A DNA stretch of 53,745 bases, the filler included, from Basidioascus undulatus (lineage: Eukaryota), in NCBI GenBank assembly GCA_000826855.1. It is 3 parts of 3 records of this genome, joined end to end, with 100 filler letters (N's around TTAATTAATTAA, not from the genome) between each part and the next. Parts side by side here need not be neighbours in the genome. Positions count along the whole stretch, not along the records: positions 17,971 to 35,808 come from JTLS01000506.1; 2 more parts are not named here. One strand, given 5' to 3'. The position numbers and the translations under genes are program-made. Shown here in pieces: positions 20,157 to 29,191 of the stretch; the first letter of the stretch is position 1, and each line of letters opens with the position of its first letter. The notes under the pieces were generated by a model. It did no database searches. It saw only the letters and a program-made list of their open reading frames with translations, and was not told the DNA's origin.

Positions 20157-22233
20157 GGCACGGCGAGGTTGTGGCCGTTCTTCTCAATCTTCCTCACCGT
20201 CTCTCTGTCTCTTCTTCCTTATCTTTTGTTCCTTTAACCCGGGCCCGCACACATCGCTCGTCGTCTTGCCTCGTATTCCACCAGCCGGTGCCCGTCATGC
20301 CCGCCCTTCCTCGCTTGCAGCAACCCACGCTCTTTTTGAACTGGTTATTTTCCCCGTCTCCTTCCCAAAGTTAAGCTTTATTTACCGTTTTATTTCCCAC
20401 AAGGGTTATCCTGATCACGCGAGGGTGTTTGCCTGGTAGACGACGGGGACTACTCTCGTCGGCCTTCTCGGAACCTCCGTCAGCCGTTCTTTCGTTTGAT
20501 ACCCGCTGGCTGGTAGTATTTGCGGTCGCCTTCGGTAAGAGAAGCCTCTGATTGTCTTCTACGGGAAATTTCAGGCCACTGCGCATACTTACAAGGCCAT
20601 TTTCGTCCAGCTTCCCTGGTGCTCCTCTTCACCCTCCTCCTCTCTGGCATCGAAATCGATCTTCCTAGTCAAAACAATGGGCCCCTGAGGCCATTCGGGA
20701 TGTCTAAGACTTACTCAAGGATCCGTCGTCGTCCCCTACAAGGCCGCGCCCTGCCTGCTACGCCAAGCAATCTCGCCTGCAGCTCGGAGACGATGACACT
20801 GCCCGCATCCCGATCCTGCCAGAGTGAACCGCCTTCCCCTTATAGCAATCATTGTCAATCGTTTAGATATATATTTAAACACTTTCAATTGTTCTTCGCC
20901 TAGGGTGTCTATATCATAATGCTGTTTGTCGCGCGTGGAACAGACTGTCGGGAGGCAAAAAGCTATGCAGGGTGCAACTGCCACAAGGCCTTCTCTCATT
21001 CCATCTCCCTCCTAGTACGTGTTGGCAGGATGAGTTGAAGATAAATAAATGTTTAAATTAAGTTTATCGGGTAAGGTCGGACCGACTTCGGCGTCTTACC
21101 ATCTTCTGGGAGTGCTTATGGCGGAGAGCGTCGATTTGTGCTCGAAGTAGCTGCCTGCACACACCACAGCATAGGAGTGGCGAAGACGGTTGATTGCACA
21201 GTCTCTGCGTTGACTTCAGGCTCATAAATCCAAAGCTCCAGTCATATTACAAGTGTCATAAGCTAGATCGAAGGGTTCAGACATCCAGATGCGCGATGAA
21301 CCCTAGATGCTAGAAATTCTGGCTGAGGTCACATTCCAATCGTCAATAAGTCAATGTTAGGGAGAACAGAGACAAACTAACACTCACAATCTGATTAATG
21401 TACCTTAAGTATGATTGATTGATGATCACTTCGACTTGTAGTGCGCCTCGCCGTCGCGAGGTGAGGTGGGCGATGGTAACGATGCAGTGGCTTCAAGAAA
21501 TGCTTGGGGTGGGTCGCACTCGACTAGAGCCGCACAGATTGACATGTTCAACCTTATTATCTCTCTAAAACTACAGTGAAAATGAAGAGGGCAACAGGGA
21601 CGCGCTCACGCACCAGGGTCCCCACGAGAAGCCTTGCCACGGTACCGTCCAAGCTGGATCAACCGCTCGTCCCGCGTTCCCGAAGCTCTGTCGGATTTAC
21701 CCTCATTTAACCAAATCCATACTCTGTAAATTGCCTCAGAAGCACCATTCTTATAGTCTCCCAGCCTCACAGCAAACAACCGAACTCGCCCTCGCCAGCA
21801 GTAGGGGTATCCAAGCTCTCTCAACGTGCACCATGCACTCATTATTCTTCTTCTCTGGCAGAAGGCAGTGACGGCTCTCCTCAAACCCAGGGCGCATAAC
21901 CATTCAGCTGACGGGCCCATTTCTCCCATCTTGCCCGTGGACGGTACCCTAGGGTGGTACGACCTGGGACACCCAAGTCAGTATATGTCTCTTCAAGCTG
22001 TGTGTCAGGGAAGCACAGGAAATTCATGCGGACGTCGACGGGCAGGACGCGACTGGTTGCTCGACCTGATTCCATACTCTGGACCATTGTCCTCCCAGCT
22101 ACAGACCACATCCAGGTCTAGTTTCTCTATTATGTAATATCGTATAGTAAGTGGCACCTTGAAGTCCATGAAGCACCTTTTTGTGCTTGACTGCACAGAA
22201 TTTTGAAAGCTCACAGGGCCATCACTGTCTGCT

Positions 22234-22244
22234 TGTCCAAGCGG
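22234..22244 (+). promoter_or_regulatory. Pol III A-box-like element upstream of the permuted tRNA
   Basis: TGTCCAAGCGG matches TRGCNNARYGG at 10/11 positions and ends 26 nt before the B box (GTTCAATCC, 22271-22279). Confidence 0.5.
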
Positions 22245-22255
22245 TTAGTTGCGAA

Positions 22256-22337
22256 ATGGTGAGGTCGGTTGTTCAATCCAGCCAGTGGGCAATGACATGG
22301 TGCCCGCTTAGCTCAGTGGTAGAGCGCGCCACTCGTA
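22256..22337 (+). tRNA. Circularly permuted tRNA-Thr(CGU): 3' half 22256-22291, 10-nt spacer, 5' half 22302-22337
   Basis: The rejoined halves give GCCCGCT TA GCTC AGTGGTA GAGC G CGCCA CT-CGT-A|A TGGTG AGGTC GGTTG TTCAATC CAGCC AGTGGGC A. All four stems pair fully (Watson-Crick or G-U), with canonical loops and invariant bases. Confidence 0.85.
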
Positions 22338-22340
22338 CTA

Positions 22341-22350
22341 TTTTCATTTT
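22341..22350 (+). terminator. Pol III terminator-like T tracts
   Basis: TTTTCATTTT starts 4 nt after the 5' half of the permuted tRNA. Confidence 0.55.
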
Positions 22351-22658
22351 GACGAATGAAGCGGCAGTGTTGACCAACCTCTGGCTGACTGCCCCTTCGC
22401 GCCTCAGGTCACCCTGACTTCTCAGACAAGCCAAAATGCCTTGTACAACAAGGAAAGTTCATGAGGAGCATCGCCAAGTGAAGCTGGAACGTCAGTGGAC
22501 GAGGAAAGCTGCTGCAGGTCCAAGCTCATCCGCACCCGTTATACCCACCAGAATATGTGAAATCTTGAGCTCCTGTTTCCTCGGCGACCAACACTGAGCG
22601 ATGGAATGTATGGAGCTCCATCTTTTGGATAGAACTTCAAGGCAAATAGAATGCTGCA

Positions 22659-23647
22659 TCACTTTACCTCCTCCTCCGCCTTCTTTTGTGCCTCTTCCGC
22701 CCGTCGCTTCTCGTTCCGCTCCCTCCCCATTTTGTTGGCCCATCGCCTGACAGCCTTCCCGATCGCCGCATATCGCGCCAAATCCTCCGGTGTATACTTC
22801 ATGTCAGCGCGCCGATGATCGCAGTCAAAGGTCTGCTTGATCTCCCGTAGCCGCGTCTGGATCGGTCGTTCTGGCACCGCACCGCTCAGCAAGTGTCAGT
22901 CGCATACAAGCGAGAGAGGAAACAGAAAAGGCACACTCCATTCCGAGGCGGTCCCGTCCATCGACGCGCCCACACGCTTCCGGAAGCCCTCCTCGACGTC
23001 CATGTCCGCCGCAGAATCCTGCAGGTCGATTTCCTCCTCTTGGCGACGCTCGCGCGCGCGCCGCCGCCGGAAGATAGTCATGCTGATGTGCTCGGGTTGA
23101 GGCTTGAGCCGCGGCAAGGGCACGTTGAAGAGCGAGGGCGGGAGGAGCTTGCCGGTCGCCTTTGGAGGAGGGAGCGTGGCTATACGTGCGGCTTTCTGTG
23201 TAGGCATCATCGCAGGCAGATTGACAGGGATGGGTTCAAGGAGTAAATCGTATGAATCCATGACAACCGTATAAGACCACGCACTTCCTCTGCCAGCCGA
23301 CCCAGACGCGCAGCTTTCCTCCCTTCCCGGTCCCTCGCCGCCCCGACAACCGCCTCCCACCGCGCCCTCCCCTCATCCGTCCCACTCCGCAGCGCGTTGA
23401 GCATTCCCTCCGCTTCCTCCAGCCGCAGCTTTGTCGTCGCGGGGCTCGTCAACCCTCGGCCCCGCCGGAAGGCGCGGCGGACGACATCCTTGTCTGCCTT
23501 GGGCGCGAGACGGAGCAGCGGGCGGTACAGTGCCCAGAGCGTCGGTCGGCGGTGCTCAAGGAGTCGGAAGAACGGGACGGGGTATCTTCGTGATCGCGCT
23601 AGACGGGCTGAGCGGATTGCCAGCTCGCGCGGAGAGAGGGAGGACAT
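22659..23647 (-). CDS. LYR-motif protein (Complex1_LYR-like), probably mitochondrial, multi-exon
   Basis: TLWALYRPLLR...VRRAFRRGRGLTS...LEEAE fits the LYR-F pattern, followed by PSLFNVPLPRLKPQPEHISMTIFRRRRARERR. GT-AG introns join ORFs 23207-23674, 22896-23360 and 22659-22892. Confidence 0.65.
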
Positions 23648-25336: not shown

Positions 25337-26213
25337 GTCACCTCGAGCGGGACCGTTGCCTCCATCGCGGTTCTCGATTTTCGGCTTTCTCGTATAGCGA
25401 AAATTGCTCGATCGAGACGTCTCCGTCTAATCCTCCACGGAGGCTTCCATTGCCTATCTTCTGTCTTACCTGCGCCGGGCTCGACCGAGCGTGCTACCTC
25501 CCTTGGAACCCCATCGGTCCTTTCCATGATACTTATCCTCGGCCGCTCGTCGTCTACGACGGCCGCGGTAACCAGGACCCGTCAACCAACGACGTTGGCG
25601 TGCATCGGTGGCGGGGCTCGCGTGCGGACGGGCGCCTGCGCGAGGGCGACGGCTACGCAGGAGATGCGGATTGCGCTATGACTCGGGTTCGCGGTGAGGG
25701 CACAGCAAAGTGGAGCGGACGATGTGGGTAGCGCGGAGAACGGGTGCTGGGTGTAGCTGTCTGAGCTGAGTCAGTGGCGAAAGCGAGCATGAAGAAGCCT
25801 TCTGTTCGACTTTGGCGCACTCCCGTCGATCCTTCCTCTGAAAACATCCCGGGCAAGCCATCTAGTCACGCATTGCGGTACCAGCTCGTTAGCTAACGCG
25901 GCGATAGGCACTGATTCCCTGTGCAGGCCCATAAGAAGACTGGACGCAGTTGAACGCTTGCGGTGAAGAGAGTTGTGATGTGCGCGAGGTCATGCATAGT
26001 TCTCCATCTTGCTCGATGACAAACGGAATCGCAATGCACCTAGATATATCAGCTCGACGGTCTCGCCACGGTAGCCACTCTCGGAACGAGCGTCTCTTCA
26101 CGCCGACTTCTGAACTCGGCCTGACATTCGGCGCCACTGGCAACTGTCCATGCAGCAGCCTCACTTCGTGCGAAATAATTCAAGCGAACGCGCGATGCAT
26201 GTCAACCGCAAGG

Positions 26214-29191
26214 TCAAGGCACCACCTCGACCCTTGCAGCCCTGACGAGCTCCTCTTCCCTGTTCCGCACGAAGACGAGCCCGTCCAGCCTGCCCTCCGC
26301 CAGCGGGCTCGCCGTATCGCGGCGCAGCAAGTCTAGTAGCTTGCCGGCAGAGACAGCGCCCACCGCGTGTCCCTTGCCCTGCGCGAGCGCGTAGTTGCCC
26401 AGCAGAACGCGGCCGATCTCGGTCGAATCGGGGGGAAGCTTGGCACCGAGCTGGTGTGAAGCGAAATATTGGAGACGTCAGTATGCTGGAAAAGAACATG
26501 ACGGCGAGCCCGAAGCAAGGGGGAAAACAGACCTGCGCCAGTTCGTCGTCCGACATCTTGCTCTTGCCCTTGAGCGCCTTGGCCCACACCGCGCGCTGCT
26601 CCGTCGACGGCGCATAGATGAAGGCGAGGTCGTCCGGGTTGCCGCGGCCGAGGATATTGACGGAGACGCGCAGGACGGCGGAAGCGAGTGCGGGGGCAGC
26701 AGTCAAGGCGGGAAGGCCGCGCTTGGCGCGGAACGCGTTGAGGGTCTCTTCAAGCGGCTTGGCAGCGCCCACGACCTCGGACACCAGCCCTCCTTCAATC
26801 AGCCACGGCTCCCGCGCGGCCTCGGACCCGACGAGCTGCGCCCAGTCCGCCCTGAACGGCGTGCGCGTACCCAGCGCCTCCCAGTTCGCGCGCTTCGCGG
26901 GAGGCTTCTTCGCCCACTCTTCGATGCCCGCCTTCTCGCGCTCTGCCGCGGCGCGCTCGCCCGCGGGCGTGCACGGGTAGCCGAAGTCCGGAAAATGCGG
27001 TGCGCCCGCGGCGTAGTGCTGGAACGCGACTTGATCGAGCCCGGCGATGCGCGTGCCCGTGTGCGTGAGCGACGTCCAGAAGGGCATGGCCCAGCCGGAC
27101 GGGACGATAAGCGTCCAGCCGTGCAGGGCGCGGGAGGACGACGTCGGCGACGGGGAGGCGAGCGTGCGCTGAATGAGGAGGATGGGAACGCGGTCGTCGG
27201 AAGGGGTAGCGGTGAGGGGGGTGCCGGGGACGAGATTCTGTGTGGGGAGCAAGCGCTAAGTAAAGTACGCACGGACTAAGCGATGTCTCTGGCAGCTTAC
27301 CTTTTCACGACGCTTGTCCAAGTCTATCTTCTTGTACGTAGGCTTGGCGATCTTGACGCGAGTCTCCTCGTCCCACAGCGTGCTTTGTGCGAGCGTCGCG
27401 CTTGGGCTGAGATCGTGTGCGGACGTGTCCTCCGACTCGGACAGTTTGCTGTTGGTGGGCGGAAACCTGCTCGGCAAAGGGTATGGGTTCAGCTATGTCA
27501 TGCGGGGCGCAGTTGAAAGCGACAACGTGATCTTACGAAAGACGCGGGTCGTCCACCAAGAACGAGCAGACGACGCCGGTAGGGAGCGAGCCCGACGTGG
27601 CCGCCTTGGAGATCTTGTGCCAAGCCTGTTCGCAGAGTGATCAGTCGAAAACGTACTGAGATCGTGAAAACGTCCTCAGATCGTTATCTACATCACGACT
27701 CACCAGCCTCGCTGCCCGACCACCGGGCTGATCCTTCGCCAGCTTCAGCGCGCCCGTGATGACTTGGCTCGACCGAGGGCCCATCATCTCGAACACGTTG
27801 AAATGACCGCGCAGGTCTTGAACCTCCACGCCGTCCACGCTCGCTGCTGCTTCCCGCACGGCGGGCAGGACCTCTGGCCAGCCCGCGGGATGGACGCGGA
27901 GCCAGACTTGGCGGATCGGGTCGGATGAGGACGAGTCGGGGTCGGATGAGGGAGGAAGCGGGCGCCAAAGGAGCGAGACGGGCGCGAGAAGACCGAGCGG
28001 ATATGCGGACGGGCGGTGAAGGCTGAAAGGGAGGGTGCGGGCACCGGAGAGGTACCTGCGCAAGGTAGTTGTGTCAGCAAGCGACGAGCCATCGGTTGGA
28101 GCGGGCAGGTACGGACCGAGGTGAGGAAGGCGACTCGGACGATGGGTCCGCCAGCAACGCGAGTACACGCGATAGCGCGTTTTGCCGCCCACGGAGCTCG
28201 ATCGTCGCCATGTACGACGCGTCGTGGATGATGGAGCCCTGGGCGGCAGCTCTATAAGAAGGGCGATGAGACTTCTCGGTCGGGTGCTTGGCCTGCACGC
28301 CACACGCCGCTATCAGCTCGAGCTTAACCGCGCTCTGAAGGAAGCGACGAACCAGACGGTGGACCCAGATGTTGATCATCTTCATCCGCTTCGCGTGCCA
28401 GATGTGCGTTTCCAGCCACGTCTTGTCGACTGCATGTCACGCAGCTAAGCCAGGGTCACTGCTGATCCTCACTCTGATCAAAACCGCACCTTGCCGCGTC
28501 AACAAATCCGTTGTCCGCGCAGGCGCGTTCGCCTGCTTGGATCCGCCCTTCTTGCGTAGCTTCTTCTTCGAGTTGCGGATCTTGGTGTTGTCGGTCTTCA
28601 TCTGGACACAGCGTCTCTCTATATGAGAACTTTAAAGCCGTGCACCATGCAAAGACGAAGCGCACCTCGGCAATGGCCTTCTCTCGCAAGCGCAGCGGAA
28701 TGCGGTTCGGGTTGTGGGAGGCGGCGCGGCGGCGGAGGTGACGAGGAAGTGACTGAAACGCTCGCTGAGCTCCCGCCCCGCTGTCCACCACCTCCGTATC
28801 AGCCCCAATAGCTCATTCTCTCAATCACTACACCAAGTCAAAGTAGGCGCACCGAGCATTTTCAATCGCATTCTCCATCGCGGTGATCTCGAATGCCCGA
28901 GCCTGAACCACTCTGCCTCAGCTTCCGTCTCAGCCCGTGAGTTCGTGTACGCGTACATTGGCGAACTTCTCGACATCGATCGATCCCGGCAGGGTGACAT
29001 TTACTAGGAGGGAGCAGAGCAGTCAGCGCAGCGGAATTTCGGCAGGTGGACTCGCACGCACCCGACTTGCCCGCCGCCGCCGTCGCCGCCGTCGCAATAG
29101 TCCGCGCATCGCGCGTTTTGGCGCGCTTGCGATCTCGCCCCGATAACGGCTGAGGCGTCGTTCGTTTGGAGGAAGAAGGTGCAGAAGACAT
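26214..29191 (-). CDS. POP1: RNase P/MRP protein subunit Pop1, multi-exon
   Basis: QRAFQSLPRHLRRRAASHNPNRIP, WLETHIWHAKRMKM, PTEKSHRPSYRA, HDASY, GWTLIVPSGWAMPFWTSL, WAKKPPAKRANW, VFVRN. Confidence 0.93.

Follow-up and report, generated by a model that had tools for sequence, protein, structure and literature searches.

The 53.7-kb window analysed here consists of three parts of the genome of Basidioascus undulatus, joined end to end. At 22256-22337, on the + strand, it contains a locus that probably belongs to a working family of circularly permuted tRNA-Thr(CGU) genes in a basidiomycete nuclear genome. The two halves of the tRNA are encoded in reversed order, and the break between them corresponds to positions 37 and 38 of the mature tRNA (type II). 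Judged from its sequence and from related copies, this gene is probably one of about five or six permuted copies in the genome. The layout is of a known kind. New are its occurrence in this group of hosts and in several copies, the implied circle that depends on Trl1, and the arrangement of the promoter. The earlier note on this DNA proposed a circularly permuted tRNA gene in a fungal nuclear genome, and this proposal is supported by the additional copies, by their different flanks and spacers, and by one compensatory acceptor stem. All coordinates below are those of the whole window.

The order of 3' half, spacer, and 5' half, as well as the break exactly at 37/38, was confirmed by reading the letters directly: A37 is at 22337 and A38 is at 22256. 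No CCA is encoded, and ATG follows directly after A73. When the two halves were swapped by script, ARAGORN reported a tRNA-Thr(cgt) of 72 nt with all four stems. The acceptor stem is 7 bp with one G.U, the D stem is 4 bp, the anticodon stem is 5 bp (one G.U in the ARAGORN drawing) with a 7-nt loop containing CGU, and the T stem is 5 bp with one G.U. This cloverleaf, which had been described before from the letters, is also the minimum-energy structure of the swapped sequence in RNAfold (-26.6 kcal/mol). The eukaryotic invariants U8, A14, G15/C48, G18G19, U33, T54-T55-C56, A58, C61, and the discriminator A73 are all present, as read from the sequence.

For a search of the whole window, it was cut into 5364 overlapping 110-nt tiles, each of which was treated as circular, with an intron allowed, and analysed with ARAGORN. 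Seven of the 5364 tiles gave matches, all of them at 22256-22337, and none of the 5364 shuffled tiles matched. The permuted locus is therefore far beyond chance. This circular search detected only this locus in 53 kb. In the native order, no tRNA gene was found by ARAGORN in the 53.7 kb, and there was no match to Rfam at the gathering threshold. Five weak Rfam matches were obtained at E up to 10; no tRNA is among them, and none is near the locus. The prediction that default scans would miss the gene thus holds for ARAGORN and Rfam on the native sequence.

There is no second copy of either half next to the locus. Local alignment revealed no second 5'-half-like stretch in the 120 nt upstream and no second 3'-half-like stretch in the 120 nt downstream, with scores equal to those of shuffles. 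Two stretches looked by eye like decayed halves, a 5' half on the upstream side (AGCTCA, 22208-22213) and a 3' half on the downstream side (about 22357-22384). Both were rejected, as their alignment scores of 12-14 are no better than the shuffle means of 13.6-14.0 and were matched by 1864-2772 of 3000 random window pieces. It had been claimed that T tracts, and no 3' half, follow the 5' half; two runs of four T (T4) were indeed observed there, and the 120 nt downstream contain no match to a 3' half.

Contigs of three DNA runs (X1, X2, and X3) were aligned to 21800-22800, and further permuted copies were observed in two of the runs, X1 and X2, which are from the same organism as the window. The whole unit, from 22249/22250 to 22337/22338, is present at three or more other loci, on X1 and X2 contigs different from those of the window itself. 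The unit 22249-22338 is internal to a contig of 12,390 nt in X1 (record 2) and to one of 28,968 nt in X2 (record 10). In two other records, 3 (22250-22337) and 11 (22250-22335), it is terminal, each contig being about 10,860 nt long. A unitig of 88 nt in X1 (record 4) covers 22252-22337 at about 2.6x the single-copy depth. The depth of the unit-bearing long contigs is 16.7-17 in X1, compared with 17.2-18.2 in single-copy flanks, and 45.4-47.6 in X2, compared with 43.9-51.9. Because their depth equals that of the single-copy flanks in both runs, the long contigs belong to the same genome.

The paralogous contigs begin to match the window at 22249, 22250, 22252, and 22253, and their flanks are unlike the window beyond 22249-22253 and 22337/22338. 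These flanks run into unrelated sequence, which indicates that the contigs represent other loci, not alleles. The shared unit is only about 88-90 nt long and ends exactly at the boundaries of the tRNA halves, with similarity breaking off immediately outside it. A short interspersed nuclear element derived from a tRNA was considered and rejected, based on the short unit, its ends at the half boundaries, and the unrelated flanks.

The letters of the paralogues were reconstructed by hand from summary tables, using depth signatures (17 and 47.6 for records 3 and 11). All listed differences of the paralogous contigs are at 22285-22307, in the acceptor stem and the spacer, and none is listed at 22256-22284 or 22308-22337. 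The spacers differ between copies at nearly every position and also in length (10-12 nt by hand reconstruction). At least GAA before A38 is common to all copies. The window and two or more of the other copies have T-runs soon after position 37. In records 3 and 11, the 5' strand of the acceptor stem is GCCTCTT and its 3' strand is AAGAGGC, where the window has GCCCGCT and AGTGGGC. The pairs 4-69, 5-68, and 6-67 are changed on both strands, while the pairs 1-3 are retained. By its letters, this stem is covariation across the permuted junction.

The third run, X3, contains a low-depth contig of 263 nt (record 17) that ends in the 3' half, with three positions different from the window. Its leader is different, but it also has a hairpin and an A-box-like motif. 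This contig may represent another isoacceptor or a related organism in the sample.

No contig of the runs aligned at 21800-22800 has the 5' half joined straight to the 3' half. It is a weak hint that there may be no ordinary copy of this tRNA. It is possible, if somewhat doubtful, that the tRNA-Thr(CGU) of this deep-branching basidiomycete lineage is encoded only as permuted genes. If so, every such ACG-decoding tRNA would pass through a circle made by Sen and Trl1/Tpt1. Opisthokonts would thereby have their first permuted tRNA pathway, which would also be the first to depend on a 5'-phosphate ligase. Further isotypes may be permuted in the same genome and missed by standard annotation.

Table 1. 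Features of the permuted tRNA-Thr(CGU) locus and its surroundings in the window.
Feature	Position	Strand	Contents or location	Evidence
Putative 5' leader	22205-22255	+	T-run-free between T4 22201-22204 and the 3' half	T-run map
Leader hairpin	22229-22244	+	6 bp, 4-nt loop	minimum-energy and centroid folds
Leader end	22246-22255	+	pairs with anticodon loop and trailer	fold
tRNA 3' half, positions 38-73, 36 nt	22256-22291	+	3' anticodon-stem strand, variable loop, T arm, 3' acceptor strand, discriminator A	letters read directly, swap test, circular-tile scan
B box	about 22270-22280	+	in T arm of 3' half	
Intervening spacer, 10 nt	22292-22301	+	ATGACATGGT; closes acceptor stem as loop	letters and fold
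tRNA 5' half, positions 1-37, 36 nt	22302-22337	+	5' acceptor strand, D arm, 5' anticodon-stem strand, loop, A37	letters, swap test, A-box score
True A box	22309-22319	+	9/9 consensus positions; in D arm of 5' half	
Anticodon CGT	22334-22336	+	within 5' half	
Trailer	22338-22350	+	CTA, then T4 22341-22344 and T4 22347-22350	T-run map

The native precursor was folded as a sequence of 117 nt (22228-22344). Both the minimum-energy fold and the centroid fold contain a permuted cloverleaf with a leader-anticodon helix. The elements of this fold are the leader hairpin, the T arm, the acceptor stem with the spacer as its closing loop, the D arm, and an extended anticodon stem. In both folds, 22251-22254 and U33-U36 form a helix of 4 bp, and a further helix of the precursor fold is formed between 22246-22249 and A37 with the first three bases of the trailer. 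There is an alternative register in which C32 pairs with G22253 as an anticodon-intron pair, leaving a 3-nt bulge at 22255/22256. The anticodon-intron pair is used by eukaryotic endonucleases (Soma 2014, PMC3978253). The leader positions -2 to -5 can be paired with U33-U36 in every copy (GCGA in three copies, ACGA, and TTGA), and G is at leader position -3 in all copies. The z-score of the precursor fold is -1.37, and 21 of 200 shuffles fold as well; the value is not significant and was weighed neither way.

We infer all steps of the following maturation pathway. RNA polymerase III would start in or just before the leader, presumably somewhere in 22205-22230, and the transcript would consist of the leader, the 3' half, the 10-nt spacer, and the 5' half, stopping at the T-runs from 22341. 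The precursor would fold into a tRNA-like shape, with the acceptor stem capped by the spacer loop and the anticodon stem lengthened by pairing among leader, anticodon, and trailer. The Sen2/Sen34/Sen15/Sen54 endonuclease would recognise the mature domain and the 37/38 site and remove the leader and the trailer. Trl1 with Tpt1 would join A37 to A38, leading to a circle. RNase P and tRNase Z would then excise the spacer, after which CCA would be added. The Sen and Trl1 steps could also follow the removal of the spacer, because the halves would stay paired. The pathway through a circular intermediate is established for Cyanidioschyzon merolae (Soma 2014, PMC3978253). Fungi ligate tRNA exons with Trl1, without RtcB/HSPC117 (Yoshihisa 2014, PMC4090602).

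The leader may also contribute to transcription. It contains an A-box-like 11-mer, TGTCCAAGCGG, at 22234-22244, which overlaps the leader hairpin and begins 36 nt before the B box. The 11-mer agrees with the A-box consensus at 7 of 9 specified positions, a score that is reached by 4.9% of random 31-nt window pieces. Among the five leaders that are reliable (those of the window, three paralogues, and the 263-nt contig of X3), scored by eye, four reach 7/9 and the fifth reaches 6/9. Taking the leaders as independent gives a binomial probability of 2.7e-5; paralogous leaders, however, are not independent. Together with the true B box at normal spacing, the leader motif may let TFIIIC place the start upstream. 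This surrogate A box is a secondary and weaker proposal, a testable idea and not a finding. If true, it would solve the promoter problem of inverted A and B boxes and would be a new way for a TFIIIC-dependent host to transcribe a back-to-front promoter. Farther upstream, about 105-125 nt from the 3' half, there is an AT-rich, TATA-like block at about 22129-22150. It is unlikely to be the polymerase III promoter, as a T5 run (22178) and a T4 run (22201) intervene. In the T-run map, there is no run of four or more T within 22205-22340, spacer included, and the two T4 runs of the trailer are likely RNA polymerase III terminators.

Several observations weigh against a working gene family. The permuted copies are known here from DNA alone. 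The identical tRNA bodies could be due to recent duplication or gene conversion instead of selection, and the compensatory acceptor stem could come from another parental isodecoder and not have evolved in place. The true B box lies before the true A box, which is the wrong order for TFIIIC, and there is no TATA-like element within the 50 nt upstream (22206-22255). By the standards of yeast, a T4 run terminates weakly. The minimum-energy fold places the 3' cut site (22255/22256) within a 2x1 internal loop; the 5' cut site falls within a helix, across from a bulged U. As modelled, the junction motif is relaxed and perhaps hBH-like, not a canonical bulge-helix-bulge. The 88-nt unitig of X1 has C at position 5 and A at position 68, a C5/A68 mismatch; in X2, position 68 is G in five contigs and A in none. 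The C5/A68 variant may be a strain difference, an error, or a decaying copy. No fungal relative with the same layout was found in metagenome scans with a strict and a relaxed pattern.

The assembly around the window's own copy is a further weak point. The contigs of the window itself break off inside the halves, at 22278, and begin again at 22315. This break is taken as graph simplification at a repeat, as is to be expected where sequence is repeated. Neither X1 nor X2 shows the spacer of the window, and at 22296 all aligned contigs differ from the window. X1 and X2 may also be the source data of the assembly. The order of the halves outside the assembly, a point raised in the earlier note, is thus settled in part: it is independently confirmed for the paralogues, whose contigs are permuted in both X1 and X2, and not for the window's own copy.

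The inverted order of the A and B boxes is noted for all permuted tRNA genes, and a TATA-like promoter is present upstream in C. merolae, within about 50 bp of the 3' half, with an AT-rich region in some green algal genes (Soma 2014, PMC3978253). The TATA-like promoter is a trait of the transcription of the algal hosts, not of the gene layout. For a ruler-type eukaryotic endonuclease, which reads the intact mature domain, a clean 5' bulge should be unneeded.

The main rival to a working gene is that the copies are non-functional relics, a small family of permuted pseudogenes, and that ordinary Thr(CGU) genes do the decoding. We consider it unlikely. Such relics could have originated in one event. 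Either a tandem duplication lost its outer halves, or an intron-containing pre-tRNA that had been cut at one splice site and then aberrantly ligated or circularised was reverse-transcribed. Segmental duplication or retroposition could afterwards have spread the relics. An origin by reverse transcription of circular or permuted pre-tRNAs is given as possible in the literature (Soma 2014, PMC3978253), and the conserved end of the leader could be the 3' end of the parental intron. The mismatch in one X1 variant and the lack of an identified proper promoter also fit relics, as does the restriction of the copies to DNA data. However, the halves have no listed differences in at least three copies, although the spacers and flanks have diverged past alignment. 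The change of three acceptor pairs on both strands in one copy is not a product of drift in a dead gene. T-runs recur right after position 37 amid otherwise unrelated trailers, and the ordinary order of the halves appears in no contig seen, the latter being a weak argument.

It is less likely still that the locus produces a non-decoding small RNA and no mature tRNA. In one form, a 5' tRNA half of about 45 nt would be transcribed from a start within the spacer, set by the A box at 22309-22319, and would end at the T-runs. By yeast geometry, the true A box (9/9) would set the polymerase III start in the spacer. The other form would be a capped tRNA-like RNA whose acceptor stem is never opened, as in bacterial and phage tRNA mimics. 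Capped tRNA-like RNAs exist, since the metagenome scan described below turned up many such modules; closed-acceptor modules without a recognisable anticodon arm were observed in 17 of the 19 loci there that are not covered by ordinary tRNA calls. In contrast, the locus in the window encodes a complete complementary anticodon stem and a CU-CGU-AA loop split at 37/38, which would be needless for a mimic or for a lone half. The 3' half is conserved as well as the 5' half, and the spacer is not conserved. A capped mimic of the YrlA type was specifically rejected, as swapping restores an anticodon stem of 5 bp and a 7-nt CGU loop.

An assembly artefact, in which the order of the halves results from a wrong join in repeated tRNA sequence, is very improbable: the halves are repeated in the genome, and the breaks and the missing spacer described above would fit it, but contigs of 10-29 kb in two runs have the order of 3' half, spacer, and 5' half at other loci, a wrong join between copies would still yield a permuted unit, the contigs of the runs drop variants, and a gap in their coverage proves nothing.

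The proteins encoded on the contig support the assignment of the host. They include a TCF25/Rqc1-like protein, SCO1, Tom22, a POP1-like protein, and a P4-ATPase. Among the best 120 matches of the P4-ATPase exon, every named protein is from Basidiomycota, with 44-52% identity; these proteins span Agaricomycetes, Dacrymycetes, Tremellomycetes, Wallemiomycetes, and a few Ustilaginomycotina. Among the best 120 matches of the TCF25 exon, every named protein is from fungi, mostly from Basidiomycota, with about 30-39% identity. Because the best matches of these two exons are from fungi and Basidiomycota, the contig is, by protein similarity, basidiomycete, of a lineage without a close annotated relative in the protein collection searched. 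The placement of the locus in a fungal nuclear genome stands, with only fungi among the named best-120 matches of these two contig proteins. An exon with a POPLD domain (POP1-like, a subunit of RNase P/MRP) is located at 26161-27252 on the - strand, about 4 kb from the permuted gene. In the proposed pathway the circle would be opened by RNase P, but this closeness is probably a coincidence.

Relatives of the locus were searched for in metagenomes. The strict pattern gave no match, and the relaxed pattern gave 101 loci. Two ordinary adjacent tRNAs account for 67 of them, 15 have a tRNA call on one side, and 19 have neither. Only two of the 19, L090 and L101, are clear 37/38 permuted genes, and both encode tRNA-Cys(GCA). 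In these loci the match is at about 301-357, the break is at 37/38, the spacer is 10 nt, and a T9 run begins two bases after position 37; ARAGORN called a tRNA after the halves were swapped. The recovery of L090 and L101 shows that the relaxed scan is able to find permuted genes. They share the break and the spacer length with the window gene, and differ from it in the isotype, the organism, and the stronger terminator. By eye, they have no A-box-like leader motif, unlike the window gene.

Of the other 17 loci, 14 were named tRNA by ARAGORN after a cut at a fixed position, and by eye they lack a proper anticodon stem. Rfam at the gathering threshold called only ordinary neighbouring tRNAs among the 19 loci. 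The 17 modules (L008, L020, L022, L023, L027, L052, L055, and ten more) consist of a T arm, an acceptor stem with a 3-12-nt loop, and a D arm. Several of them are preceded by a GGTTACTTCG-like motif, and L010, L062, L069, L081, and L087 sit amid ordinary tRNA genes. The 17 modules, unnamed by Rfam at the gathering threshold, may be capped tRNA mimics.

The 34 permuted tRNA genes in Table 1 of Soma 2014 (PMC3978253) belong either to unicellular algae or to Thermofilum pendens. The distribution of permuted genes given in the earlier note agrees with this table. A later addition is the green alga Auxenochlorella (2025 preprint). Most eukaryotes are without permuted tRNA genes, while nothing in principle forbids the 37/38 type (Soma 2014, PMC3978253). 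The note knew of no report from fungi, and no report of a fungal permuted tRNA was found by title or abstract opening among the papers listed from PubMed Central and bioRxiv, subscription journals being outside this coverage.

So far, permuted tRNA genes have been regarded as an oddity of one archaeon and a handful of unicellular algae. If the multi-copy family of this basidiomycete is real, the phenomenon would be extended to fungi and to opisthokonts. It would have originated independently, in a lineage where most tRNA genes are probably intron-bearing. The pathway would then exist in a group in which Sen, Trl1, Tpt1, RNase P, and TFIIIC are readily studied by genetics, and the promoter question of inverted A and B boxes would be directly testable. 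It would also mean that tRNAscan-SE, ARAGORN, and Rfam silently under-count the tRNA sets of some fungal genomes.

Type II genes with the 37/38 break predominate in green algae (Soma 2014, PMC3978253). The algal and nucleomorph genes of this type were described by Soma 2007 and Maruyama 2010, as reviewed in Soma 2014 (PMC3978253). As in the type II genes of Ostreococcus, Micromonas, the nucleomorph of Bigelowiella natans, and C. merolae, the 3' half of the window gene is upstream of the 5' half on the same strand. The break at 37/38, the short spacer, and the absence of an encoded CCA are shared with the algal type II genes. The spacer is 10 nt here, and spacers in Table 1 of Soma 2014 (PMC3978253) are 5-64 nt in type II genes and 1-74 nt over all types. 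Like the algal type II genes, the window gene has a T-run after the 5' half and none inside the unit, and its leader is predicted to pair with the anticodon loop, perhaps in a relaxed, hBH-like junction. The isotype is also shared with C. merolae, in which Thr(CGT) is a type II permuted gene (Soma 2014, PMC3978253). Cys(GCA), the isotype of the two metagenome loci, is encoded by type II genes in Ostreococcus and Micromonas (Soma 2014, PMC3978253, Table 1).

The host differs from those of the algal and archaeal cases in being a basidiomycete fungus, an opisthokont. Unlike the algal type II genes, the gene is multi-copy in B. undulatus, and it has a leader A-box-like motif instead of a TATA-like element within 50 nt upstream. 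The expected ligase is the fungal Trl1 with Tpt1, whereas that of algae is of the RtcB/HSPC117 type (Yoshihisa 2014, PMC4090602). The circular pathway is established in C. merolae, while the B. undulatus gene is represented here by its DNA.

The YrlA-type Y RNA modules of bacteria also have the T arm, the closed acceptor stem, and the D arm in permuted order. Unlike these modules, which are without a decoding anticodon arm, the window gene has a complete anticodon arm, split at 37/38.

The closest parallel within the host group is in ordinary intron-containing tRNA genes of basidiomycetes. In Cryptococcus neoformans, 132 of 143 tRNA genes have an intron at 37/38 (Yoshihisa 2014, PMC4090602). 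The permuted gene shares with such genes the splice position and the expected enzymes, which are the Sen complex, Trl1, and Tpt1. Its leader resembles the 3' part of an intron, as it can pair with the anticodon and carries a G at the third base ahead of the 3' splice site. Unlike in the ordinary intron genes, the exons are reversed, so that ligation would lead to a circle and the ends of the tRNA would be cut inside the molecule.

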